44,612 nucleotides of DNA. Source: Escherichia phage vb_EcoS_bov22_1. Below are positions 9,531-41,781 of the stretch, one piece after another. The notes beneath the pieces are model-generated. The model searched no databases, was not told where the DNA came from, and worked only from the letters and a program-made list of their open reading frames with translations. The DNA is taken from sequence record NC_073084.1. One strand, written 5' to 3'. Numbering within the stretch: the stretch's first letter is position 1; every line of letters begins with the position of its first letter. Position numbers and translations under genes: made by a program.

Positions 9531-9789
9531 CCAATAAATCGCAGTCGGATATGTTGTCGATAACGCGAACGTCAGCACCGCGGCGGGCCATTCGCTCATG
9601 TTCACGTACCTGGTGCGGCTTCGGTTTTCCTCCGGGGCGCTTCACTTCGACGAACACTATTTTGCCGTTGATGATAATAATCAGGTCGGGCGCACCCGCG
9701 CGCCCCTCCCATGCCAGTTTTCGGCAGAATCCGCCGACCTCTTTCACCCGTTTCATCAGGTGACTTTGAATCTTGCCTTCCGGTGTCAT
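9511..9789 (-). CDS. VRR-NUC domain nuclease
   Basis: DLIIIINGKIVFVEVKRPGGK (D ... E-V-K core); start at ATG 9789 (MTPEGK), overlapping the polymerase stop; the longer track ORF would overlap the polymerase gene. Confidence 0.7.
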   Translation of the reverse strand: MTPEGKIQSHLMKRVKEVGGFCRKLAWEGRAGAPDLIIIINGKIVFVEVKRPGGKPKPHQVREHERMARRGADVRVIDNISDCDLLVAELVA

Positions 9790-12080
9790 CACTTCCTGTA
9801 CCTGTACATGATGTCGCCTTCGGCGGCAAGTGGGAAGCCTTTCGCCCAAACAGGCAGGTCGCACATCAGCGCGCACAACTCCTCGGTTGTGTAGTCGTCA
9901 GTATCCGGCACTTCGGTTATCAGTTCATCGTGTACGGACAGTACGATCTCATATCCCGCAGCTTCAACGCCAGGCATGGACCATGCGAGGATATCGCGAC
10001 ACAGCGCCTGTACGATGTTTTCCGTGAGTTTGCCGCCGTAGGTGTACTGGAAGCCCCACTGGCGCGTCGTCTGATTCTCACCCTGATATTTAATGCGGGT
10101 GCTGGTGCGCTTCTTGCCGGTGTCTTCGTCAATCTCGGTCGTGACAGACAGCCCGATGCCTGGGTAGCTCATGATGCGCCCCGACGGCAACTCAATTTTC
10201 AACCACCACCCCGCGGCGTTCGGGTCGTCGCGCTCCTCGTCGAAGGTTGGGTCGTGCTTCGCCTTCGTGCGCACAATCTTGAGCGCTTTCCTACCGTCCG
10301 GGCGAACGTTAGCGCCCGCCCAGTATGCTTTGCCCGGATTGCGGATTGCGCACAACACCGCGTCCTCAAGCTCGGCCCAAAAGGCTACCGTCTTCGGGTG
10401 AGCCTCACGCCACATACGTTTGATCGCGTCACAGGTAAGCCATACGTTTTTCGGCAGTATGTAGGTTGGGCGCTCATCCTTCTTGCCAGGCTTCGGCGGG
10501 CGCTTAGCTTCGTTAATGCGGGCGTACTCATAACCGCGTTTCGCCGCCGCCCAAATGTGATCCGGGAATGTACCCTTCATCACGTCCGCCATAGTGTAAA
10601 GGTCGAGGCCCAGGTTTTTAGCGAACTGCAAGAACGCCGCGACGCCGCCACCATAGCCCAGTCCCAATTCACACGCCTTTCCGATCTGGCGTAAGTCTTT
10701 GCGGTTGGCTTTGATGTAATCCGGGTCAAGGCCGAACATCTTACCGGCAGTCTCGCAGTAAATATCGCGGCCCGCCTTAAACACCATGAGCGCTGTTTTC
10801 TCGCCCGCGATCCAGGCAAGTCCACGCCCTTCCACGTTGGAGTAGTCCGCTACGACAAACTTCTTGCCCTTAGCCGGGATAATGCACCCGCGAACGGTCG
10901 AGGCTGTTAGCTTAGATATGTCATACGCCCAGTGCGCGGTCCCGCGTAACAGGGAATTGATGCCGTTGGTGAGCATGTGCGACCGGACCCAAAAAGCAAC
11001 GTCGCTCTCGCCTTCGCGGCGCTTAATCTTCCCTTCGTGATCGTCGCTATACTCGCCGCGTGCCAGGTTTTGAGGCTGGAAGCCTTTACCCGCCCAGCGC
11101 AGCGTGCGCTTTGCGCCACCATACTGAAGACACCCACGGCGGCGACCGTCGGCAGACAGGCCATTAACGAGCGGATTGTACTTAGTCGATGCCGTTGATG
11201 ACGCGCCGAGGCGCATTTCGATAAGCGCTTTGCCTTCGTCGGGGAAGTCCGGGTCTTCAAGCAGGTCGTTAAGTGTGGATTTCTGCGCGTTGTGGATTGT
11301 GAACGCCGGGGCGATATCACGCAGGATTGGCAGGAAGTCATTGCCTGTCAGTTTACCACCAAATCGCTCCCAGGCTTCCTCCTTCAATTCTTCCTTATGC
11401 GCCTGCACCGCTTTGATCGCGGCGTTCGCCAGGTCAACGTCCACATAGAAGCCGCGGTCGTTGATCAACTGGTCGATAAGCAGGATTTCATCTTCCTTCG
11501 GGGTATTACCCCAGTCCGGTATGCGCCAGTAGACCTCCCGCATCGCGATAATATCCAGCGCGGCATATCGCAGAAATTTGGCCCATTCTTCAGGGTGAGT
11601 CTCGCGAGTGTAGCGGCGTATTTTGTAGGTCTTAGGGGTAGGCTTACAGAATCGTTTGATCAGCGCCTTGCCTGCCTTATCCTTCGCGTGCTCTGCGTCA
11701 ACGCCCAGCACCTGACACTGCATATCGAGGCTACCCGGCAGCGCGTGCCGAAAGGCCATAATCATGGTATCTTCGATCTGGCTTACCGGCAGGTCGATTC
11801 CCCACTTCTCACGGATAACCAGGCGGTCAAACAGGAGGCCGTTAGCCATCACGATTTTTGCTTTCTTGCGGGATACCTGACGGAGCGCCTTGCGCAGTTC
11901 ACGCGGCATTGTTGGGGATTCAGTGGCATCCCATGTCTGCACGCGGCCTTCGTCGATGGCGTAGGTGCAAATCATAATCTCGGTGGTTGGGTGCTCTGCG
12001 TAGGCGTACGCCCCTACTTTCTTCAGGTCAACCCCGCTGAATGTCTCGGTGTCGAGAAACAAGCGTTCGAAGTCTTTCAT
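9789..12080 (-). CDS. family A DNA polymerase with 3'-5' exonuclease domain
   Basis: Exo I LFLDTETFS; pol motif A DYSNVEGR, motif B RQIGKACELGLGYGGG, motif C VHDE; GAGGA RBS before ATG 12080. Confidence 0.9.
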   Translation of the reverse strand: MKDFERLFLDTETFSGVDLKKVGAYAYAEHPTTEIMICTYAIDEGRVQTWDATESPTMPRELRKALRQVSRKKAKIVMANGLLFDRLVIREKWGIDLPVSQIEDTMIMAFRHALPGSLDMQCQVLGVDAEHAKDKAGKALIKRFCKPTPKTYKIRRYTRETHPEEWAKFLRYAALDIIAMREVYWRIPDWGNTPKEDEILLIDQLINDRGFYVDVDLANAAIKAVQAHKEELKEEAWERFGGKLTGNDFLPILRDIAPAFTIHNAQKSTLNDLLEDPDFPDEGKALIEMRLGASSTASTKYNPLVNGLSADGRRRGCLQYGGAKRTLRWAGKGFQPQNLARGEYSDDHEGKIKRREGESDVAFWVRSHMLTNGINSLLRGTAHWAYDISKLTASTVRGCIIPAKGKKFVVADYSNVEGRGLAWIAGEKTALMVFKAGRDIYCETAGKMFGLDPDYIKANRKDLRQIGKACELGLGYGGGVAAFLQFAKNLGLDLYTMADVMKGTFPDHIWAAAKRGYEYARINEAKRPPKPGKKDERPTYILPKNVWLTCDAIKRMWREAHPKTVAFWAELEDAVLCAIRNPGKAYWAGANVRPDGRKALKIVRTKAKHDPTFDEERDDPNAAGWWLKIELPSGRIMSYPGIGLSVTTEIDEDTGKKRTSTRIKYQGENQTTRQWGFQYTYGGKLTENIVQALCRDILAWSMPGVEAAGYEIVLSVHDELITEVPDTDDYTTEELCALMCDLPVWAKGFPLAAEGDIMYRYRK

Positions 12081-12247
12081 TGCTTTATCCTCACTACGGC
12101 GTCAGCGCTGCCGATCATGGAGAAGATGCCGTCGGACAGGGCGATCTCTTCTCCATTGTTGCGAATCTCGGCAACTGTGAAATACTCGCCCAGCAATTTG
12201 GACCATACCTGCATTCCGACTTTTACTTCGCTGGCTTTAATACGCAT
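12077..12247 (-). CDS. small hypothetical protein, coupled to the polymerase gene
   Basis: ORF of about 55 aa (below the track size cut-off); AGGA RBS; its TGA overlaps the polymerase ATG. Confidence 0.35.
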   Translation of the reverse strand: MRIKASEVKVGMQVWSKLLGEYFTVAEIRNNGEEIALSDGIFSMIGSADAVVRIKQ

Positions 12248-12260
12248 TTTTCATTGTCCT

Positions 12261-12287
12261 ATTAAAAAGCCCGCATTAAGCGGGCTT
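12261..12287 (-). terminator. rho-independent terminator (minus strand)
   Basis: Minus strand AAGCCCGC-UUAAU-GCGGGCUU followed by U-rich tract, after the SSB stop. Confidence 0.5.
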
Positions 12288-12305
12288 GAATAGTGGGCTT
12301 TGCCC

Positions 12306-13088
12306 TTAACGGCGGCGACGTTTACGTGGCGCTTCGTCTTCGTCGTCGTCCTCATCTTCGTCATCGCGTGGCTTACGACGTTTGCGAGGTTTTTCATCTT
12401 CCTCATCGTCGTCGTCATCGCGGCGCTTGGATTTCTTGGACTTGCGCGGCTTGTCATCTTCATCATCGTCATCACGACGTTTTGACTTTTTGGACTTGCG
12501 CGGTGCTTCGTCTTCGTCGTCGTTGTCCAGGTCTTCGTCGGAACATGAAGACCCGCCACCTCCGAAGGCTTCGCCGTCTTCACGGAATCGCAGACCCAGC
12601 AAGCCAGCCCCGAGACCCTTGCCGTTGGTATTGTTCCACGCCCAGATATCAAGGGACACGTTGCAATAACAACCGGAGTAGATCTCCTGGCCGTCAATCT
12701 CGTCGCCGTCGATGGTCAGACCTTGTTCGGTCTGCTTCTCGCCGAGTGACGTTTGAATGATAGGCTGTTTGAACGATTTGGCGTTGATATACAACATGCC
12801 TTCGAATTCTTCGGTCACTTCGTCACGCTCGTCACCGTCGCGGACTGCGCATTCCTTAGAATCCTGGGCGTAGTGGCGGTCCATCCACTTATCGGCATTC
12901 TTCTCGGATTTCAGCTTGTCGGTGAGCACTGCGCGCGCTGCCGCTTCCACTTTGTCCACCTGCGGATCTTCTTTATCCAGAAGAATCACGGCACGGTATG
13001 CCGGTTTTTGTCCATCCTGTTTAGGGGTATCACGTTCCCAGATTTTCAGGAAGCATACGCGCACATTTTTCAGGTTGACTTTAGCCAT
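12306..13088 (-). CDS. single-strand DNA-binding protein (phage type) with long acidic/basic repeat tail
   Basis: ATG 13088 (MAKVNLKN) with GAGGAA RBS; OB-fold-like body ending in DGEAFGGG; C-terminal repeats DDDDEDDKPRKSKKSKRR; usual partner of the RecB-like nuclease and polymerase A in phage replication modules. Confidence 0.6.
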   Translation of the reverse strand: MAKVNLKNVRVCFLKIWERDTPKQDGQKPAYRAVILLDKEDPQVDKVEAAARAVLTDKLKSEKNADKWMDRHYAQDSKECAVRDGDERDEVTEEFEGMLYINAKSFKQPIIQTSLGEKQTEQGLTIDGDEIDGQEIYSGCYCNVSLDIWAWNNTNGKGLGAGLLGLRFREDGEAFGGGGSSCSDEDLDNDDEDEAPRKSKKSKRRDDDDEDDKPRKSKKSKRRDDDDDEEDEKPRKRRKPRDDEDEDDDEDEAPRKRRRR

Positions 13089-13178
13089 TTTCCAATTCCT
13101 CATTTTCACATGTATCGGGGTTATTGGAAGCCACCCCGTTCGGCTTGGTTGCCAATTTACTTGGTTGCGCCTGAGCGG

Positions 13179-13421
13179 TCAAGCATTTTCATTAAAAAGA
13201 TTTCTGGTCACGTAGTTGGTCGCGTTCTCGATCCAGCTTAACGGCGGGCGGTTGATGTTCTTCTCCACCCAATCGACGGCAGCTTCGCTATAGCCGTCAT
13301 CCAGCCAGCGGGTCGGATGTCGAATCATCCACGCCACCATTAACACGCCTTGCACGCAATGCAGGATAAAGCCCAGCGCGCCGAGCAAAAACATCAATAA
13401 GATTGCGAATACTTTATTCAT
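13179..13421 (-). CDS. small membrane protein
   Basis: 80 aa with two hydrophobic segments; GAGGA RBS; overlaps the 3' end of the nuclease gene. Confidence 0.5.
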   Translation of the reverse strand: MNKVFAILLMFLLGALGFILHCVQGVLMVAWMIRHPTRWLDDGYSEAAVDWVEKNINRPPLSWIENATNYVTRNLFNENA

Positions 13422-14844
13422 TACTTAAGTCCTCGTCGGTAGCTTCAGACCACGCAGGGCGCGGGTCGTCGATTGGTGCTAATACCGGTTTTGCCGGTGC
13501 GCGCGTGATTTTATCACACAACTTCGCCCACACTTTCGGCTTCTCGTCCTTCAATACCTTCTCGGCATCAGTAGGGCTGAGTAATGTTTCTTTGTACATA
13601 ACATCGCGCTTGATCCGGGCCTTCGTGAAGATCTCAATCACTTCGCTCTCGTCCGCCCACTTGCGGATTCCTTCCTTACCGGCAACCATCTTGAGGCCCA
13701 GCGATTCGCCATCACCCGCCATTACGGCCTTGAACACCGCGGACTCGATAGCCTTGATGTGCTGGCGCATTGCGTCAAGACCTTCATATGCCTTGCGCAG
13801 TTCCGCCGCGCTCATAGCGCCGGGGGCCGCTTCTTTCTTGCCACGCTTCGCACGTCGTGCCGCTTTGCGGGCTTCGCGGGCCATATTGCGGTCGTGATTG
13901 GCGCATTCTTCCTCTGTCGCAATACTCACGTCGTCGCCCAGGTCTTCGTCTGTTGCCGTTGGTTGGGTCATCGTGTCGATTGCGGCCTTAGCGCGGGCGC
14001 TACACTGATCCGCAAATCGGCACCACTGGCACGCATCAACGCTCGGTCGGAAGTCGGCACGGGTGAGTCCCTTTTTGCCGCGGGCGTACGCCTCCAGGGC
14101 GGCGATAGCACGCTTGGACGCAAACTTCGCGAATATCTCCAGGGCTTCTACCGAAATATCCCACTCCGACGCCCCGCCGCAATACGGCTGGAAGATAACC
14201 AGGCGCACGGTCGTGATGTCGTACATGGATTGCAGCTTGCGCAGCAGGCCGAGCGCATACAGCATAAGCTGTTTGTTTTCTTTCGCCTCGACCTTATGCC
14301 GCCCCGTCTTCAGGTCGCCAACAATCAGCATGTACGTGCCGTCGGTCTTCTTCATGACCATGACCATATCGGCAGTACCGAACGTCTTAACCCGGTTGCC
14401 GTCGATCTCGAAGCCAGAGTGTAGGACGCGGGTCAGATCGGTGCGCATCTCAAGCTGGACAAACTCCGCCACTTCGAGGAGCGGTCGCCAGTGGTCGACG
14501 TATGCGTCGCACTGTTTCACCATATCGTCGTTGACCAGTACGCCGCCTTTCGGCGCTTTCGGGTGTGCCTTTACCGGTCCCTTTCCTTCGTTCTCGACGT
14601 AGCACCCTTTGTACGTCTTCGCGGTTATCAGCTTCTCACCGGCGATAATGCGGTTTAGCACCACCTCAGATACGGTGTGCATACTCGTACCGTTAATCGC
14701 GGCTTGCCCGGATTCGTTCGGGATATCTTTTTCCACCACCAGGGCGGCTGGGCAACCCATCCATTTTTTAGCTCCGGATGGGCCGAGTAAAGAGTGTTCC
14801 GTGTTGCTACCGGATTGCGTTTTACGTTTTGGTTTAATCGTCAT
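13414..14844 (-). CDS. RecB-family PD-(D/E)xK nuclease, Cas4-like with Cys cluster
   Basis: IVGDLKTG (hhhD-x-K), QLMLYALGL (QxxxY), C-x2-C-x5-C (CQWCRFADQC); 476 aa. Confidence 0.8.
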   Translation of the reverse strand: MTIKPKRKTQSGSNTEHSLLGPSGAKKWMGCPAALVVEKDIPNESGQAAINGTSMHTVSEVVLNRIIAGEKLITAKTYKGCYVENEGKGPVKAHPKAPKGGVLVNDDMVKQCDAYVDHWRPLLEVAEFVQLEMRTDLTRVLHSGFEIDGNRVKTFGTADMVMVMKKTDGTYMLIVGDLKTGRHKVEAKENKQLMLYALGLLRKLQSMYDITTVRLVIFQPYCGGASEWDISVEALEIFAKFASKRAIAALEAYARGKKGLTRADFRPSVDACQWCRFADQCSARAKAAIDTMTQPTATDEDLGDDVSIATEEECANHDRNMAREARKAARRAKRGKKEAAPGAMSAAELRKAYEGLDAMRQHIKAIESAVFKAVMAGDGESLGLKMVAGKEGIRKWADESEVIEIFTKARIKRDVMYKETLLSPTDAEKVLKDEKPKVWAKLCDKITRAPAKPVLAPIDDPRPAWSEATDEDLSNE

Positions 14845-15332: not shown

Positions 15333-15851
15333 TTAATCTTCCAGTTCGAAATAGGTTTCGACGATTTCTTTTAACTCTGTGTGGAAGTCTTCGACGTCGT
15401 CATCTTCCAGCTTGGCGATTGATTTGATCTCGAACGATTCCAGCAGGTCGTCGAATTCGTCGTTCGCGTCGTCGTCATCACCCCCGGCAATAATAGCGGC
15501 ATACTGTTTGATCTCGTCGCGCATCTCTGCCAGCGGATCGGCATCTTTCTTACCTTTGCCTTTCGCCGGGGCTTTTTTACCCTTCGCAGGTTTTTCGTCT
15601 TCGGCTTCTTCATCGTCGTCATCTTCTACGACTTCTTTTTTGGACTTACCTTTCGCCGGGGCTTTTTTAGATTTAGCCGGTTTTTCGTCTTCGGCTTCAT
15701 CGTCGCCATCTTCGACAACTTCTTTTTTCGCCTTAGACGGCTTCTTGTCTTCCTGTTTACCAACGGCAGCGCCAACGGTTTCATAATGCTTTGCAATGGT
15801 TTCCAGTGCTACTACGCCGCGAGTGATCAGGTTTACGATTTGCTCAAACAT
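15333..15851 (-). CDS. highly acidic protein with Lys-rich tandem repeats; first gene of the leftward early operon (candidate host-takeover or DNA-mimic protein)
   Basis: ATG 15851 with GGAGATATACC RBS (upstream part of the track ORF has no RBS); two ~30-aa repeats KKEVVEDxDDEAEDEKPAKxKKAPAKGKxKK; acidic C-terminus. Confidence 0.65.
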   Translation of the reverse strand: MFEQIVNLITRGVVALETIAKHYETVGAAVGKQEDKKPSKAKKEVVEDGDDEAEDEKPAKSKKAPAKGKSKKEVVEDDDDEEAEDEKPAKGKKAPAKGKGKKDADPLAEMRDEIKQYAAIIAGGDDDDANDEFDDLLESFEIKSIAKLEDDDVEDFHTELKEIVETYFELED

Positions 15852-16594: not shown

Positions 16595-18859
16595 ATGAGC
16601 TTAATTAAATTCGCTGTAACAAAACCCGCTAAAAAAGGCGAAAAAGCCAGGGCGGAAAACTTCCAGATGACGACCGATGAGTTTTTCGAATTTATCAAAG
16701 ATGCGAAAGAAATATCCTCGGTGCATATCAACAAGACGGAAGATAAAGCCGAGTATGCGCGCCGCAAGCGTAAGGCCGATGGCATCGTGGCGTATACCAG
16801 TGACGGATTGCGTCGTAAGACCAGTGCGGTGGACCGCTCGATCCTGTTCTTTGATATTGACCGCACCGACACCCGCACCCTGCGCCGCTGCCGTAAGGCG
16901 TTCATCGACGCGGGTCTGGAACACGTATTTCACACCACCACCGGCGACCGCCACCCGCTGAAGGGCGGCACGCGTTGCGCCCGTTTCCTGGTGCTCACTG
17001 ACAAGCCTGTACCGGCTGAAGACCTGGGCCGCGTACAATATGCACTATTACACCAACTGGGTCTGTCAGATGTGGACTTCGACGATTGCACGAAAGACAC
17101 AAACCGCCTGATGTACCTGCCACACCAGCAGTCTGTTATTAAGTGCCACTATGGCAAGCGCGCCAATGTGCGTCGTCTACTCCGTCGGGCGGACAAGCTG
17201 GGGGTGGAAAAAGAGGAAGTACGCCGCGAGCTTACCCAGGGCGACGACGCAGTGGCAGACGGCATTCTGGACTGGTGCTTCCAGGCCGGATTCGAGGAGT
17301 TATCTTCTGGTCGTGGTTATGAAGTGCCGTGTCCTAACGAACATCTGCACAGCGGCGAAGGGTCGACGGCTATCATGGTCAAGGATGGTGAGATCCGTTT
17401 CAAGTGTATGCACACTGGCAACGAGTGTTGCTCGGAACTGAACAGACACCAGCACCTGGCGCTACGTCTTATCGGGATCCCGGACCACCTGAACGTCGAA
17501 CCGCACAACATGTCACGTAAGCAAATCGCCGCCATCCTCCCAGGACTGGACGACGAGGAAGTGGAATCATGCTATGCGCATATCGTTGATGCGGTCGGAG
17601 ACGGCGACGAGTACGGCGTATGTACCGACGCTGACCTGGATAACGAACCGGTCGCACTGTTCAGTAAGCACGACCCTATCATCGAGGGGTTGATTAACTT
17701 TAAATCGACCTGGTATATGGCTGGCGAGTCTAACATCGGTAAATCGTTCTACGTGCTGGGCCAAATGGGCGCTGTTGCCGCGGGTATTCCGTTCGGCGGT
17801 GCGAAGGTCGTCCAGTCTCATTGCTTCTATTTCGACGCGGAAGGTGGCGAAGCCTCCAACCAGCGTAAGGAAGCATTGCAGATCAAATATGAGCACGACC
17901 TGGACAAGCTGCACATTATCGATCTGCAATCACGCGGCTGGGATATCACCAGCAAGTCCGGCTTGCGTGAAGTTATCAGCTTCATCAACCGCACCGCTAA
18001 CGGCGAACCGGTTGGCCTGGTGGCGTTCGACTCACTCAACCAGACGGTTGCGTTGCGGTCCGCCGATGCCAAACCGTTCGACGAGAACAACGCCAGCGAT
18101 ATGGGCGAAGTGGTCAAAGCGCTGAAGGCCATCGCGGAAAATACAGGCGGCAGCGCGGGCGTCATCCACCACCCGGCGAAGGGTGCAAACGGCAGCAGAT
18201 CTCCCCGTGGGTCCGGTGCGCTGCATGGTGCTGTCGATTCTGCGTTCTTCCTGGAGCAACCAGACGACAACCAGCCCGGACAACTGAACCTGTATCACGA
18301 GAAGGCACGTAACGGCATCAAGCAAGCGCCGCGCGGCTTCGTCCTGCTCAAGTGCAAGGTGAAGGTGGATCTCCGCAAGTCCGAGGCGTTCGAGGCACAC
18401 CAGTCCACCAGCACAGGGCCGGACTTCGGCGATGTAGTTGCCGGTTGGGACGTCAAGCCAATTGCATCCACGCCACGCGACGAGACTCTTTACCTCGTAC
18501 CGGTCGCCCTGGCACCGTTCGCCATCGAACAGGCGAAGGCCGCGGGCAAGGCCGCAGTTAAGGAGGAGAACGCCGCAGGACCGCGCAACGAAAAAGAGAA
18601 AGTGCTTTATGCGGCACTGGAAAAACTGATGGAAGATAACCCGGACCATACCGGATTCAGTAAATCGGCAATTGTACGCCAGGCGGGATTGGCAAAAGGC
18701 GGCACATCGACGAAGGCAATCGACGATATGGTCGAGCGCGGCGTGCTCGGTTTTTATACAGATCCGCACACCGGGGCCATCTATGGGTCGTCAAATATCG
18801 TCATCAAAACGAATATACCCATCACGCTTTCGGCGACCGATGACGACCTGAAAGATTAA
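16595..18859 (+). CDS. primase-helicase (N-terminal primase-like domain with Cys/His cluster, C-terminal RecA-like ATPase)
   Basis: 754 aa; Walker A GESNIGKS and RepA/DnaB-like ATPase region; CPNEHLH ... CMHTGNECC zinc-binding-like cluster. Confidence 0.75.
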   Translation: MSLIKFAVTKPAKKGEKARAENFQMTTDEFFEFIKDAKEISSVHINKTEDKAEYARRKRKADGIVAYTSDGLRRKTSAVDRSILFFDIDRTDTRTLRRCRKAFIDAGLEHVFHTTTGDRHPLKGGTRCARFLVLTDKPVPAEDLGRVQYALLHQLGLSDVDFDDCTKDTNRLMYLPHQQSVIKCHYGKRANVRRLLRRADKLGVEKEEVRRELTQGDDAVADGILDWCFQAGFEELSSGRGYEVPCPNEHLHSGEGSTAIMVKDGEIRFKCMHTGNECCSELNRHQHLALRLIGIPDHLNVEPHNMSRKQIAAILPGLDDEEVESCYAHIVDAVGDGDEYGVCTDADLDNEPVALFSKHDPIIEGLINFKSTWYMAGESNIGKSFYVLGQMGAVAAGIPFGGAKVVQSHCFYFDAEGGEASNQRKEALQIKYEHDLDKLHIIDLQSRGWDITSKSGLREVISFINRTANGEPVGLVAFDSLNQTVALRSADAKPFDENNASDMGEVVKALKAIAENTGGSAGVIHHPAKGANGSRSPRGSGALHGAVDSAFFLEQPDDNQPGQLNLYHEKARNGIKQAPRGFVLLKCKVKVDLRKSEAFEAHQSTSTGPDFGDVVAGWDVKPIASTPRDETLYLVPVALAPFAIEQAKAAGKAAVKEENAAGPRNEKEKVLYAALEKLMEDNPDHTGFSKSAIVRQAGLAKGGTSTKAIDDMVERGVLGFYTDPHTGAIYGSSNIVIKTNIPITLSATDDDLKD

Positions 18860-18954: not shown

Positions 18955-19126
18955 GCATAAACTAAGCGGGACAAAAAGCGGGACAAACAAGGGGCGGGAC
19001 AAAGCGGGACAGCACCCCCGTCCCGCCCCGGATGACGCGGCTTCCAGAGGAGCGGGACAGCGGGACAGCACCCCAGTCTTTCAGACTAGACGGGGGTCAA
19101 CGGCCCCCCTCGTCTGAGACTGAATA
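18955..19126 (+). repeat. structured repeat element, copy A: GCGGGACA iterons plus GC-rich hairpins
   Basis: Six direct GCGGGACA-like copies and one inverted; 10-bp stem GGGGCGGGAC/GTCCCGCCCC; second hairpin AGACGGGGG ... CCCCCCTCGTCT; nearly identical to 36128-36301. Confidence 0.7.
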
Positions 19127-27650: not shown

Positions 27651-28737
27651 TCAACATTTGGCGGATCGAATGATTCGCCGTCACATCTTCACCCAGCGCC
27701 TGAGCAATGATCAGGCGCGGAGGGTGCTGGCTATGTGGGAGAAGTTCCGGCCCACTTTACTTGGTAAGCTGACCGAGTTACTTGATGGCAAAAAGTCCAT
27801 GAGCAACAAGGCACTTACCACACTGTTAACTCAACTCGACAAGACCGTCAAAACGGAACTACGCGCCGAGTTTAAAGTGCTGGCGGAGAGCCTTCAGGAG
27901 TTCGCCGACGCCGAGGCTAATTATCTAGCAGACACACTAACGGCAGCGATCCAGCCCGCTGTCGCCGTACCGGCTGTTGAAGTAGTTGGCGTTGTTACCG
28001 GCGCGCAGATTGCAGCGACGGCAATGAAAAACCCGTTCCAGGGTAATACTATGATGCAATGGCCTGATTCCCTTTCCGAGTGGACCAGGACGCAGATCGG
28101 CAATCAGGTGCGCGCCGGATTCATCCAGGGAAAGCCAACGATGGAAATTATCGCGGACGTGAGGCGCGCGCTAGGCGGTCGTAGTGCGCAAGCCATCTCA
28201 AGCGTTGTTAAGTCCGCAGTCAACCACTATGCGGCGACCGCCCGCGAACTAATGGTAAAAGCAAATGACGATATTCTCGAAGGTCGCCAATGGTTATCTA
28301 CATTGGACACGCATACTTCTCCCATGTGCCAGCTACGCGATCGCCTGTTTTATCCGGTTGATGTTACTCCCGATACGAAAGGGAAGCGCGGCGGGAAAGT
28401 GGTGGCTGGATCACAATATGGCGCTGGTCCGGGCAAGCTACATTATTGCTGCCGTTCGACGGAGACGTGGAAAGTCAAAGGTATGGAAGATTGGCCCAGT
28501 GGTAAGCGTCCGGCACTGAAGGCTGACGCAGGCAGATTGCTGAGTGAGCAGGTAGACGCGCAGACTGATTTCTTCTCATGGGTGCAGCGCCAGCCGCGCC
28601 ATATCCTGGAAGAATTATATGGAGTGCAACGCGCCGACCAGATTATGCGCGGCGTGAAAGTGCCGAAGATGTTCACCGATTCTGGTGAACTGATGACTAT
28701 TGCACAGCTTAAAAACCGGGGGTTATGGCGTGATTAA
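27634..28737 (+). CDS. head morphogenesis protein (Mu F / SPP1 gp7-like minor head protein)
   Basis: LDTHTSPMCQ ... HYCCRS Cys motifs typical of the family; position after portal. Confidence 0.7.
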   Translation: MAKTINQHLADRMIRRHIFTQRLSNDQARRVLAMWEKFRPTLLGKLTELLDGKKSMSNKALTTLLTQLDKTVKTELRAEFKVLAESLQEFADAEANYLADTLTAAIQPAVAVPAVEVVGVVTGAQIAATAMKNPFQGNTMMQWPDSLSEWTRTQIGNQVRAGFIQGKPTMEIIADVRRALGGRSAQAISSVVKSAVNHYAATARELMVKANDDILEGRQWLSTLDTHTSPMCQLRDRLFYPVDVTPDTKGKRGGKVVAGSQYGAGPGKLHYCCRSTETWKVKGMEDWPSGKRPALKADAGRLLSEQVDAQTDFFSWVQRQPRHILEELYGVQRADQIMRGVKVPKMFTDSGELMTIAQLKNRGLWRD

Positions 28738-29059
28738 ATATGCAGCGATTGGGCTGGTTATCGGTCTGGCGGTAGGATTCTGGCTAGGTGACTCCTATCG
28801 CGCGGGCGTAGTGGCGGAGGCAGCGCAAGAAGCGCAAGCCCAAGCCCAACGGCAGCAAACTAAAGTTGTTGAGCGCTCCGTGCAGGCAGAACAAGCCCGC
28901 GACGTAGAATACCGGACTATCACGAAAGAGGTTGTTAAATATGTTACGCGCCCTAACCGCCCTGATTGTAGTTTTGATGCTGAGCGCGTGCGGATCAAGC
29001 AACGCGCCGTTGATGCCGCTAACGGAGTCGGCGCTGCGACCGCCGTGCAAGTTCGATAA
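28730..29059 (+). CDS. i-spanin (Rz-like)
   Basis: GTG start 28730; N-terminal TM helix IKYAAIGLVIGLAVGFW, Ala/Gln-rich periplasmic coiled region, C-terminal Cys; contains the overlapping lipoprotein gene in another frame. Confidence 0.55.
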   Translation: MIKYAAIGLVIGLAVGFWLGDSYRAGVVAEAAQEAQAQAQRQQTKVVERSVQAEQARDVEYRTITKEVVKYVTRPNRPDCSFDAERVRIKQRAVDAANGVGAATAVQVR

Positions 29060-29171
29060 CCCGTCCGCGGACCCCGACGAAGATTTGATGATTGACGTGA
29101 AAAATATGGAATGCGGGGCGAAGCTAAGGGCGCAGGTGCTGGAGTTGCAGCAAATAATTAAGGGGCCGTAA
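28941..29171 (+). CDS. o-spanin (Rz1-like lipoprotein)
   Basis: ATG 28941 with AAGAGG RBS; lipobox LMLSAC; Pro-rich mature region; embedded in the 3' part of the i-spanin gene. Confidence 0.6.
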   Translation: MLRALTALIVVLMLSACGSSNAPLMPLTESALRPPCKFDNPSADPDEDLMIDVKNMECGAKLRAQVLELQQIIKGP

Positions 29172-32918: not shown

Positions 32919-33089
32919 ATGAATCCTGCATTACTGGCGGCTATTATCGCCGCAAATACTAAGCACCAACCAGAACCAGAGCCGGAACCAGAACCAGAGC
33001 CGGAACCAGAGCCGGAACCAGAACCAGAGCCGGAACCAGAACCAGAGCCGGAGCCACCGGTACAGGAGGATGCTAATGGCGGGCTTTAA
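32919..33089 (+). CDS. small protein with (Pro-Glu)n dipeptide repeat
   Basis: ATG 32919 with GGGGGTGA RBS; MNPALLAAIIAANTKHQ followed by about 17 PE repeats; overlaps the next gene start. Confidence 0.45.
   Translation: MNPALLAAIIAANTKHQPEPEPEPEPEPEPEPEPEPEPEPEPEPEPPVQEDANGGL
32968..33056 (+). repeat. tandem hexanucleotide-type repeat (ccagaa/ccagag/ccggaa units) encoding the PE tract
   Basis: Direct reading: gaaccagagccggaaccagaaccagagccg repeated. Confidence 0.7.
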
Positions 33090-35982: not shown

Positions 35983-36120
35983 AGCGGGACAAAACGGGAT
36001 GTCCCGTTTTGTCCCACCCCACAAATGTGCATATCTAATCACTTCCATTGCATAATCTAAAAGCGGGACAATCGGGACGTCCCGTTTTGTCCCACCCCAC
36101 AAATGTGCATACCTATTCGG
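35983..36120 (+). repeat. two tandem ~79-bp units, each with a 30-bp GGGAC-based palindrome next to a promoter-like TTGTCC-17 nt-TATCTA/TACCTA
   Basis: Perfect inverted repeat gggacaaaacggga-tg-tcccgttttgtccc at 35986-36015; degenerate copy 36065-36093; each followed by accccacaaatgtgcata. Confidence 0.6.
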
Positions 36121-36127
36121 ATTTCGT

Positions 36128-36301
36128 GCATAAACTAAGCGGGACAAAAAGCGGGACAAACAAGGTGCGGGACAAAGCGGGACAGCACCCCCGTCCCAGC
36201 CAGTGCTGCCGCGGTTTTTAGCCGATCGGGACAGGCGGGACAAACCCCAGTCTTTCAGACTAGACGGGGGTCAATGGCCCCCCTCGTCTGAGACTGCATA
36301 A
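36128..36301 (+). repeat. structured repeat element, copy B (GCGGGACA iterons plus hairpins)
   Basis: About 70 nt then about 60 nt near-identical to 18955-19126, with a divergent central segment; in the second hairpin the single C/T difference falls in the loop. Confidence 0.7.
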
Positions 36302-40432: not shown

Positions 40433-41173
40433 ATGCTAACGAAGAAGGTTAAACGCGATATTGCCGCACACGTTGCGGCATGTCTGCCGGAAGAAGCCTG
40501 CGGGCTGGTCGTCATGGTGGGCCGTAAGCAAGTATTCGTCCCGTGCCTGAACGTCTTCGAAGACCCCACCGGCGCGCGCTCTCGAAAAGATGCGTTTACA
40601 ATTAGTGATATGGCCTGGATGGATGCCGAGGATATGGGCGACGTTGTGCGCGTAGTACACTCGCACCCAGGTCAGCGCGAGTTAACCCCGTCATTGGGCG
40701 ACGTTAATGGATGCAACGGCAGCGGCGTCGTCTGGACCATCACTAACGAATATGGCGACTTTATCGAGATCGACCCGGAAGACCCGCCGCTGGTAGGCCG
40801 CCGATTTGTTCTCGGGGTTACGGACTGCTACGGCCTCGTCATGGCATGGCATAAAAAGCAGGGCGTAAACCTGCCAGACTTCCGCGTACCGTATAACTGG
40901 TGGGAGACAGGCGAAAACCTGTATATGGACAATTGGTATGGCGCGGGCTTCCGGGAGTGTGAGGAGAATACGCCGGGGGCAATGGTCATCATGCAGATCA
41001 GCGCGCCAGTGCCAAACCATGCCGGAATCTACCTTCCAGGCAACCAACTACTGCACCATATCTACGGCAGCCTGTCGAGCGTCATTCCCTTCCGGGCAGG
41101 ATTTTTCCGGGACAATGTGGTTAAATGGGTACGTCATAAAGACCTACCGGGGAATATCACAGAATGGCAATGA
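40433..41173 (+). CDS. tail assembly protein K-like (MPN/JAMM plus NlpC/P60-like domains)
   Basis: EACGLV ... VHSHPGQ ... D (JAMM-like) and TDCYGLV ... H (NlpC/P60-like Cys-His); AAGGGG RBS. Confidence 0.7.
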   Translation: MLTKKVKRDIAAHVAACLPEEACGLVVMVGRKQVFVPCLNVFEDPTGARSRKDAFTISDMAWMDAEDMGDVVRVVHSHPGQRELTPSLGDVNGCNGSGVVWTITNEYGDFIEIDPEDPPLVGRRFVLGVTDCYGLVMAWHKKQGVNLPDFRVPYNWWETGENLYMDNWYGAGFRECEENTPGAMVIMQISAPVPNHAGIYLPGNQLLHHIYGSLSSVIPFRAGFFRDNVVKWVRHKDLPGNITEWQ

Positions 41174-41781
41174 CCACATTTAAATTATACGGCGTTTTAG
41201 GACGTCGATTCGGTAAAGTGCACAAGCTGGACTGCTTTACACCGGGCGAGGGTATCACCGGCCTGTGCGTGAAGTTACCGGGCTTACAGGACTTTCTAAT
41301 GTCGGCACACCTGGACAACATGATGTTCAAAGTGCGCAAGGGCAATCACACTATGACCGGCTACGACGAGTTGGGTGAGTTCCACGGCGACCGCGTAGTG
41401 ACCATCGCGCCGGTTATGACTGGCGCAAAAAGCGGACTGGGCCAATTGCTGGCGGGTGTCGCAATCGTGGTGGCGTCGTTTTATACCGGCGGGCTTGCGA
41501 CTGCCGCTTTCGGAGCTTCAGCGGCGACCGCGGCCGCTATCGGCGCCGCGACGTTTTCGTTTGGGATGTCGATGGCGCTGGGCGGCGTTATGCAATTGCT
41601 GTCCCCGCAACCGAAAGGATTGCAGACAAGGCAGGATGTGGATAATAAGGCGTCTTATGCGTTCGGCGGCCCAGTAAACACGACCGCGCAAGGCACGGCA
41701 CTTGGGGTATTATGGGGAGAGCGTGAGATCGGCGGCGCTATTATTTCAGCCGGAATCGTAACCGAGGATTTGAACGAATGA
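41164..41781 (+). CDS. tail assembly protein I-like
   Basis: 205 aa with Gly/Ala-rich hydrophobic C-terminal half; position between K-like and J-like genes. Confidence 0.65.
   Translation: MAMTTFKLYGVLGRRFGKVHKLDCFTPGEGITGLCVKLPGLQDFLMSAHLDNMMFKVRKGNHTMTGYDELGEFHGDRVVTIAPVMTGAKSGLGQLLAGVAIVVASFYTGGLATAAFGASAATAAAIGAATFSFGMSMALGGVMQLLSPQPKGLQTRQDVDNKASYAFGGPVNTTAQGTALGVLWGEREIGGAIISAGIVTEDLNE

Follow-up and report, generated by a model that had tools for sequence, protein, structure and literature searches.

The single-stranded DNA-binding (SSB) protein of Escherichia phage vb_EcoS_bov22_1 ends in a long tail, predicted to be disordered, in which acidic and basic blocks alternate while the net charge stays close to that of the short acidic tails usual in its family. 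The window, that is, the whole stretch of 44,612 nucleotides (nt) that was analysed (record NC_073084.1), is the genome of a Dhillonvirus (HK578-like E. coli siphophage), and the SSB gene occupies positions 12306..13088 on the minus strand, encoding 260 amino acids (aa) followed by a stop codon (open reading frame (ORF) listing, PF10991, PHROG 112). The tail opens with a short peptide, [ST]D[DE]DL (hereafter the DL motif), that recurs in the exonuclease and the primase-helicase of the same phage, and closes with an oligo-arginine tip. There is, in our estimate, an even chance that this tail is a functional, disordered, charge-balanced and multivalent extension of the family's short acidic SSB tail. 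The protein family, the fold and the gene context are already known, and orthologues are annotated as SSBs. The literature searched describes neither SSB tails of alternating charge nor the shared DL motif, and within that literature the charge-balanced alternating tail, the conserved oligo-Arg tip and the DL motif common to SSB, exonuclease and primase-helicase are new.

The core of the protein spans aa 1-179 (12552..13088, minus strand; AlphaFold2 (AF2) and Foldseek) and terminates with an FGGGG hinge. It matches Pfam PF10991 (Enc34_ssDNA-bd, formerly DUF2815) over profile positions 2-173 of 176, with 110 bits against a cut-off of 26 (E = 1.3e-31), as well as PHROG 112, ‘Gp2.5-like ssDNA binding and annealing protein’ (E = 1.5e-57), and the PDB sequences 4klk, 4jg2 and Enc34 ORF6 (5odj), at E of about 1e-11. 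In the AF2 model, built from a 142-sequence alignment, residues 1-170 reach a predicted local distance difference test score (pLDDT) of 90-98. Foldseek aligns this predicted core with 4klk (E = 2e-12) and 5odl_A (E = 1.3e-11, TM-score 0.76), also with 5odj and 4jg2, and with T7 gp2.5 (1je5) at E = 1.5e-6, while E. coli and mitochondrial SSBs give E values above 0.5. In the HMMER alignment to 5odj, W149 and N153 coincide with the DNA-contacting Trp150 (stacking) and Asn154 (backbone kink) of Enc34, the T7 counterpart of the stacking aromatic being Tyr158. The position of Enc34 Tyr156 is occupied by Asn, and the second stack is thus not kept. On sequence and model together, the protein is probably a replicative and recombinational ssDNA-binding protein of the T7 gp2.5/Enc34 ORF6 type, and the OB-fold body proposed in an initial annotation, made from the letters alone, is borne out. 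A canonical bacterial SSB (PF00436, DDDIPF tip) was considered and rejected, as no PF00436 match was found and the protein ends in RRRR. The frame delivered by the ORF finder is longer (12306..13109, minus strand, 267 aa), beginning with a GTG at 13109. The start is almost certainly the ATG at 13088 and the GTG probably none; the length is taken as 260 aa because a putative ribosome-binding site, GAGGAA (13096..13101, minus strand, by direct reading of the sequence), lies 8 nt upstream of this ATG and all SSB homologues compared begin with MAKVNL.

Behind the hinge (...EAFGGGG), the tail reads SSCSDEDLDNDDEDE-APRKSKKSKRR-DDDDEDD-KPRKSKKSKRR-DDDDDEEDE-KPRKRRKPR-DDEDEDDDEDE-APRKRRRR, ending at the stop codon. 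Its 81 residues include 36 D/E and 28 K/R in four acidic and four basic blocks, giving a charged-residue fraction of 0.79 and a net charge of -8. The proximal motif S-D-E-D-L (aa 183-187, 12528..12542), a candidate docking or auto-inhibitory short linear motif, is followed by the alternating array (aa 188-260, 12309..12527), recognised by its charge statistics and pLDDT as four basic blocks in a predicted disordered context, and the array closes with the oligo-Arg tip A-P-R-K-R-R-R-R (12309..12332), delimited by comparison of tails; all three are on the minus strand. The pLDDT of the tail is 45-61, and the sole helix that AF2 predicts in it, at D184-L187, falls exactly on DEDL. Local charge segregation lies 10 standard deviations above that of 5000 residue shuffles, none of which reaches it (kappa about 0.61). 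The sequence charge decoration, a long-range charge-patterning score, shows no difference between the tail and its shuffles (z = -1) and is uninformative here, since the alternating blocks cancel. A repeat tail of about 90 aa, encoded by tandem DNA repeats, had been described initially. The tail stands, with its length corrected to 81 aa, and Tandem Repeats Finder (TRF) detects the DNA array at 12398-12523 with a period of 54 and 2.3 copies, though in degenerate form (73% matches), the repeat being kept better as peptide than as DNA. Members of the family carry an unstructured acidic C-terminus. The present tail, predicted disordered and with a net charge of -8, fits it in spirit, yet with 28 of 81 residues K/R and RRRR in place of the usual hydrophobic last residue it is a variant in form. 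A nuclear-localisation-like meaning of KPRKRRKPR was dismissed as irrelevant in a bacterium.

The rarity of this design depends on how relatives are gathered. A whole-protein search returned 120 homologues, almost all with alternating tails, and is seeded by shared words, hence biased to similar tails. In a tail-blind search, the 179-aa core was compared with 1.84 billion cluster representatives, giving 2065 matches; the best 150 were viewed, and tail types were counted in the 141 of these top representatives with a complete core. Plain acidic tails, with a median of 23 aa, at most two K/R and mostly a hydrophobic last residue, make up 124 of the 141, and any basic block is found in 11, in agreement with the earlier description of the tail as atypical. 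In a neighbour-joining tree built from the cores, basic blocks are shared by the query and the six representatives closest to it, and the remaining cases are scattered, which suggests that alternating tails had several origins in the family. As far as these sequences represent it, the tail is atypical for the family, yet the rule within one enterobacterial-phage clade.

The net charge behaves more uniformly than the length. Plain tails (n = 124) have a median net charge of -8 (interquartile range -10 to -7), and alternating tails, with a median of 54 aa, one of -9 (interquartile range -10 to -6; n = 109, a set enriched for similar tails because the query included the tail). Acidic and basic residue counts correlate with r = 0.92, and Dhillonvirus tails of 44-91 aa carry net charges between -1 and -13. 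Net charge is therefore alike in both tail types and the extension is charge-compensated.

The tail is present throughout the relatives of the phage. The 1.8 kb around the SSB gene match Escherichia phage vb_EcoS_bov16_1 with 100% DNA identity and some 150 Dhillonvirus E. coli siphophages with 90-98%, among the latter SECphi4, SECphi18 and several BASEL phages. Tail lengths in these relatives were derived from GenBank megablast spans over a 601-bp stretch. The tail stretch is matched by 149 GenBank phage records, of which 141 cover 80% of it or more, and nearly all length differences are multiples of 3 (-108, -60, -57, -48, -12 ... +12). The tail is in frame, with 2, 3 or 4 basic blocks, in 11 of the 12 independent IMG/VR contigs listed and in SECphi4 and Kente; in the remaining contig, L011, the SSB frame is cut by the contig end. 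All complete Dhillonvirus tails examined start with SDEDL(G/D)(D/N)DDED and end with APRKRRRR or KPRKRRRR. The SECphi4 orthologue (QJI52528) has 241 aa and 3 basic blocks, that of SECphi18 has 4, and phages whose SSBs are 88-99% identical differ in unit number, from 2 to 4. The variation in repeat number that the initial annotation expected from alignment with related phages is thus present, and its proposed inspection of related assemblies for repeat collapse or expansion finds the tail in frame across relatives and not an artefact.

That the tail is an assembly or annotation error, or that the real coding sequence is an antisense poly-Ser ORF or the open +1 frame, is hardly credible. Two database entries, P0005 (phage vB_EcoS-22664B1) and P0008, do carry a differing, frameshifted tail, and an alternative frame is open over the entire tail. 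In the record of 22664B1, however (GenBank MZ234008, locus L015, 1002-1811), where the annotated SSB tail runs frameshifted into MTKMKHRARLRSPNVV..., the intact D/E-K/R tail ending with APRKRRRR lies in another frame, and for this reason the record, judged by its sequence, probably has an indel error near the GGGG-coding run. Programmed frameshifting was rejected for both entries because of the intact tail in the other frame (shown for P0005), an indel error being most likely. The D/E-K/R frame is kept in about 150 independent genomes and the complete tails examined share the RRRR stop, whereas the +1 frame is open simply because the codons start with A or G. The antisense poly-Ser ORF reported earlier as spurious exists (12382..12669, plus strand), as a compositional by-product, because the (GAC/GAT)n of the tail is read from the opposite strand, where (GAC)n gives TCG, a Ser codon. 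Synonymous divergence (dS) in the tail equals that in the core, and there is therefore no sign of a second coding frame; with dS unreduced and the frame open by composition, a gene overlapping the tail or antisense to it was rejected. An assembly artefact was rejected on the match of some 150 relatives, the in-frame length changes and the 11 of 12 IMG/VR contigs. In L011 (IMGVR_UViG_3300045988_003101), the SSB frame runs to ...AVSYTHLRAHET at the contig end, which looks like a translated Nextera adapter, i.e. read-through left in the assembly.

The residues of the tail change as slowly as those of the core. In three equal-length orthologue pairs, with equal dS in both parts, the ratio of nonsynonymous to synonymous divergence (dN/dS) is 0.03-0.07 in the tail and 0.03-0.10 in the core, a ratio that is noisy where the sequence is of low complexity and offers few synonymous sites. 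The 14-aa stretch PRKSKKSKRRDDDD is identical in repeat units 1 and 2 despite 7 synonymous DNA differences, and when the 18-aa units are compared in full, 9 of about 10.3 synonymous sites are different. By these sequence comparisons, purifying selection acts on the residues of the tail. Across lineages the tail sequence drifts, with three elements persisting: the block pattern, the acid-x-Pro-base junction and, in the majority of lineages, the basic tip; lineages whose cores are 45-60% identical retain a tip of the xPRRRRR type. Some versions are K-rich and others R-rich, so that charge is kept and not residue identity.

These comparisons also bear on a nearly neutral origin, in which slippage or unequal recombination duplicated a terminal acid-plus-base unit and the array preserves only net charge and the proximal motif. 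Such duplications would be tolerated because they hardly change the net charge, consistent with a charge near -8 at any tail length and with 2-4 units among nearly identical SSBs; but amino-acid change within the units is as rare as in the core, and old duplicates keep their 14-aa identity with synonymous sites close to saturated. The seemingly repeated origin of alternating tails in the family, and the almost complete loss of a similar array from natural variants of a neighbouring small protein, likewise point to neutrality, against which no Dhillonvirus variant examined has fewer than two basic blocks or lacks the oligo-Arg tip, and the pattern persists in lineages down to about 45% core identity. 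Neutral expansion is, on balance, a possible but rather doubtful account of the tail.

The motif at the start of the tail is shared with other replication proteins. D[DE]DL occurs 5 times in the 89,220 six-frame codons of the window against 0.44 expected, with 4 of the 5 in SSB, exonuclease and primase-helicase, and the strict form [ST]D[DE]DL occurs 4 times against 0.06 expected in the six-frame translation, all four in these three proteins. The motif scan places D-E-D-L at the extreme C-terminus of the DUF2800 exonuclease, which ends ...WSEATDEDLSNE (13426..13437, minus strand), and D-D-D-L at the extreme C-terminus of the primase-helicase, which ends ...LSATDDDLKD (18839..18850, plus strand). 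A further, internal exonuclease motif, TATDEDLGDD (13939..13950, minus strand), is followed by the basic stretch REARKAARRAKRGKK (together 13939-13994), the pair being one acid/base unit that recalls the tail of the SSB. Chance is taken to account for the one remaining D[DE]DL match, which falls in an o-spanin-like lipoprotein ORF (28932-29171), and for the TEDLNE with which tail assembly protein I (41164-41781) ends.

Each of the 12 Dhillonvirus loci listed retains both motif sites of the exonuclease. The C-terminal one also occurs in the related loci L017, L018 and L022, with a relaxed version in L023 and L024, while the internal TATDEDLGDD is absent from the L017 and L018 exonucleases and, among those checked, found only in Dhillonvirus ones. 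The comparison covered six lineages, Dhillonvirus and five with SSB cores 45-60% identical. In these five, the exonucleases end with ASDDDLE, ATDDDLEN, ATDEDLE, (VDSSDLED) and VSTDDLS, the primase-helicases with ASDEDLNS, EDDDLSD, ASDEDLE, (EDCDLSDSD) and NAEDLE, and the SSB tails start with ANDDDLDDD, ATDNDLDDD, ATDDDLEDE, ATDDDLSDD and ASADDLDDN. A C-terminus consisting of [DE]DL and one to four further residues is found in 10 of the 12 exonucleases and primase-helicases of the six lineages, whereas only 4 ORFs have one among the 1022 others with a length of 60 aa or more (Fisher p = 2e-19). Plain-tailed members of the family have a related proximal motif, xDEFEDL. In L017 (10807-10995) and L022 (10940-11143), a small ORF in the gap between SSB and polymerase genes ends ...TATDEDLE or ...ALDEDLE and is a fourth carrier of the motif; its 56-aa counterpart in the window is without it.

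The Enc34 ORF6 SSB (PDB 5odj/5odk/5odl; Enterobacter/Hafnia phage) resembles the phage protein in Pfam family, fold, stacking Trp and kink Asn, in an FGxG hinge followed by an acidic disordered C-terminus, and in its neighbours, a DUF2800 nuclease and PolA. Its tail is purely acidic, with essentially no basic residues, and ends ...WDEDEV, whereas the phage tail runs for 81 aa through four K/R blocks to an oligo-Arg end. Without its last 21 residues, Enc34 ORF6 loses the discrimination between ssDNA and double-stranded DNA (dsDNA) (PMC5686142), and the tail in the PF10991 family thus controls ssDNA/dsDNA discrimination. The annealing protein T7 gp2.5 shares the OB fold and an FGGG hinge followed by an acidic/hydrophobic motif (EDDW, where the phage has SDEDL). 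Its tail, FGGG-EDDWADEVEE...KASKPR...DEESWDEDDEE...DGDF, is a rudimentary acid/base/acid arrangement with one K/P/R spacer, and it differs in an overall identity of about 12%, a single weak basic patch and an essential terminal Phe in place of RRRR. In T7, too, SSB and helicase-primase have an acidic C-terminal peptide in common that serves polymerase docking, while in the phage the shared motif is also on the exonuclease. It is to basic patches of the T7 polymerase that the acidic tails of gp2.5 and gp4 bind, and the gp2.5 tail also occupies the protein's own DNA cleft. The contacts of the gp2.5 tail and its competition with ssDNA are cited in PMC5686142 as well.

By this analogy, [ST]D[DE]DL would be a docking or auto-inhibitory peptide common to the SSB and to the exonuclease and primase-helicase C-termini, its likely targets being a basic patch of the DNA polymerase and/or the SSB's own DNA-binding cleft. 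The polymerase, itself without the motif, appears by comparison with T7 to be the most plausible hub. Slippage-prone acid-plus-base units, adding acid and base in equal amounts, would have lengthened the tail two- to four-fold with the net charge held near -8, the acidic blocks acting as extra DNA-mimic or partner-binding sites and the basic blocks contacting DNA or the acidic blocks of neighbouring tails. The resulting multivalent electrostatic cross-links could promote cooperative coating and strand annealing, and tail exposure would depend on DNA binding. A constant net charge would preserve the balance between tail and DNA, with the conserved oligo-arginine tip replacing the usual hydrophobic last residue. 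Unlike the fold, the predicted disorder, the selection, the gain and loss of units, the charge, the motif sharing and the rarity, the identity of the partners bound and the function of the basic blocks are what we infer here.

Two other SSBs offer functional analogies. In T4 gp32, a basic N-terminal LAST motif provides cooperativity and an acidic C-terminal module provides partner binding and kinetic regulation; the fold is unrelated and the modules are at opposite ends, whereas the phage SSB interleaves both in its tail. The disordered tail of E. coli SSB controls cooperativity, partner recruitment and condensation, and an acidic-hydrophobic peptide, DDDIPF, is its docking site. There the OB family is PF00436, the linker is G/Q/P-rich and uncharged, and the docking peptide is at the extreme C-terminus, whereas the phage motif stands at the start of the tail.

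A small acidic protein of 172 aa (PHROG 3127; 15333..15851, minus strand) carries a charged repeat array at about 15543-15758 (TRF period 90, 2 copies), and the initial annotation proposed a charged-tail module common to it and the SSB. No Pfam match was found for this protein; it has 166 homologues of 99-239 aa. AF2 predicts an N-terminal helix (2-27), a disordered charged array (23-101) and a confident three-helix C-terminal domain (106-167), an acidic domain with an invariant F133-D135-L136-L137 core in a (D/E)EFDDLLE motif. A homologous small gene lies upstream of the exonuclease in 7 of the 7 lineages examined, with a K/A/P/E-rich array that is different in each; array copy number varies, and the array is nearly absent in the natural variants P0366 and P0351. 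In L021, the array forms a C-terminal acid/base tail much like the SSB tail of that locus. In the window protein, to judge from the model and these variants, the array is a dispensable central linker and not a tail. SSB tail and array align with a Smith-Waterman z of 2.9 over within-block shuffles, and their longest common DNA word is 11 nt. What is left of the proposed module is the style, an acidic run, x-K-P and a basic run; homology, or a common position and role, is not supported, given the low z, the 11-nt word, the central place of the linker and its near loss in some variants.

The same protein enters a condensate scaffold, in which the blocky polyampholyte tail would self-associate by complex coacervation and, together with the phrog_3127 protein, build a compartment for phage replication or recombination, to which DL-motif proteins would be recruited. 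E. coli SSB phase-separates through its disordered linker, and the charged fraction, the kappa value and the strongly segregated blocks of the phage tail suit such behaviour, although this inference is purely compositional. A second protein of the gene module with an array of the same style in seven lineages, nearly identical to the SSB tail in L021, would supply a partner, but its array is dispensable in some natural variants. Co-variation between the basic segment of the SSB tail and the array within genomes gives a weak hint at 3-mers (p = 0.023, 114 of 5040 permutations), and is not significant at 1-mers (p ~0.15) or 2-mers (p = 0.065). No other family with the module emerged when the tail alone (78 aa) was compared with 5.8 billion proteins, a search in which low-complexity correction let none of 8000 word candidates pass scoring. 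A condensate scaffold is accordingly unlikely. We give a similarly low probability to a broader arrangement, in which tail, phrog_3127 protein and [ST]D[DE]DL would constitute an electrostatic assembly system for replisome and recombination. The SSB tail would there be a self-associating, DNA-responsive scaffold, possibly a condensate, and ssDNA binding would uncover the docking peptide, so passing the polymerase among SSB, exonuclease and primase-helicase. Under this broader arrangement, T7-type SSBs in general would be designed around a net tail charge of about -8, and block number would be a tunable valency.

The SSBs of SECphi4 and SECphi18 are direct Dhillonvirus orthologues with the same tail design, differing in copy number and a few substitutions. 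Stokar-Avihail et al. describe these SSBs as Retron-Eco8 triggers, genetically defined for SECphi4, and display residues 1-186 only, the ‘flexible C-terminal residues’ not being analysed. Retron-Eco8 is reported to sense SSB binding to multicopy single-stranded DNA (msDNA), and its activation by the SECphi4 SSB is an indirect sign that the protein binds ssDNA. The tail could be imagined as counter-defence, altering recognition by SSB-sensing immunity (Retron-Eco8, Hachiman, ShosTA and others) or denying host factors the canonical tip. Besides the triggering by both orthologues, its lack of the family's typical hydrophobic tip and its fast copy-number evolution fit this idea, but selection on tail residues is purifying, not diversifying. 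The T7 tail is dispensable for Retron-Eco8 activation, and the escape mutations of SECphi4 and SECphi18 that were examined are the core substitution T56P or lie upstream of the gene, none in the tail. Counter-defence is very improbable, given that escape is located in the core and that Retron-Eco8 is still triggered by the SECphi4 SSB with its tail.

Several of these observations also weigh against a functional, multivalent extension. With escape in the core or upstream and the T7 tail dispensable, the sole known in-vivo phenotype of the SSB is without tail involvement. The basic block is limited to 11 of the 141 top representatives, the 109 alternating tails are an enriched set, and dN/dS comes from three pairs only. 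Since unit number ranges from 2 to 4 between near-identical phages, any role of the array would have to tolerate changes in dosage, and some of its length may be close to neutral.

SSB tails are hubs of replication, repair and recombination and have been studied almost only as short acidic peptides. Here the tail is lengthened with compensating positive blocks at fixed net charge and the candidate docking peptide is moved to the tail start, in a natural, abundant and experimentally tractable case among the E. coli phages of the BASEL and SECphi collections. The system offers a way to learn how the charge balance and patterning of a tail govern ssDNA/dsDNA discrimination, cooperativity and annealing, to identify the replisome subunit that recognises the common peptide, and to see if fitness depends on the number of repeats, with relevance to gp2.5-type annealases in recombineering and to how SSB-sensing defence systems see these phages.

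The SSB gene sits in a replication module with the DUF2800 PD-(D/E)XK exonuclease (13414-14844, minus strand) and the family-A DNA polymerase PolA (9789-12080, minus strand), the gene order being alike in L017-L024; the primase-helicase (16595-18859) is on the plus strand, all three being taken from the ORF, Pfam and PHROG listings. Directly 3' of the SSB stop codon, RNA folding reveals an intrinsic-terminator-like hairpin with a U-run (12263..12292, minus strand; dG -24.6 kcal/mol, z = -4.6, 0 of 200 shuffles equally stable). A consensus terminator scan did not list this hairpin, while direct folding favours it and a ‘Terminator’ is annotated within the 601-bp matching span in three related GenBank records. 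A highly expressed transcription unit probably ends with the SSB gene, with read-through to a 56-aa ORF and the polymerase gene. This ORF (phrog_10102; 12077-12247, minus strand), in the gap between SSB and PolA, is identical to the ‘56aa protein of unknown function’ of SECphi18 and SECphi6. The defence-escape mutants in the supplementary table of Stokar-Avihail et al. include an E21 frameshift in the 56-aa gene (SECphi18, SECphi6) and SECphi4 mutations upstream of it, next to DNA-polymerase mutants.

Elsewhere in the window, the lipoprotein-like ORF at 28932-29171 (plus strand), with an LSACGSS lipobox, partly overlaps the 3' end of 28700-29059 (plus strand) in a different frame, and the two look like an overlapping Rz/Rz1-type spanin pair. 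An iteron-like motif, GCGGGACAAA, has 14 matches with at most one mismatch against 4.5 expected, in two clusters, at 18966-19003, right after the primase-helicase stop codon, and at 35984-36244, in both orientations; these could be an origin or a regulator-binding array. A tandem repeat with a period of 12/18/30, AACCAGAACCAGAGCCGG, lies at 32968-33056.

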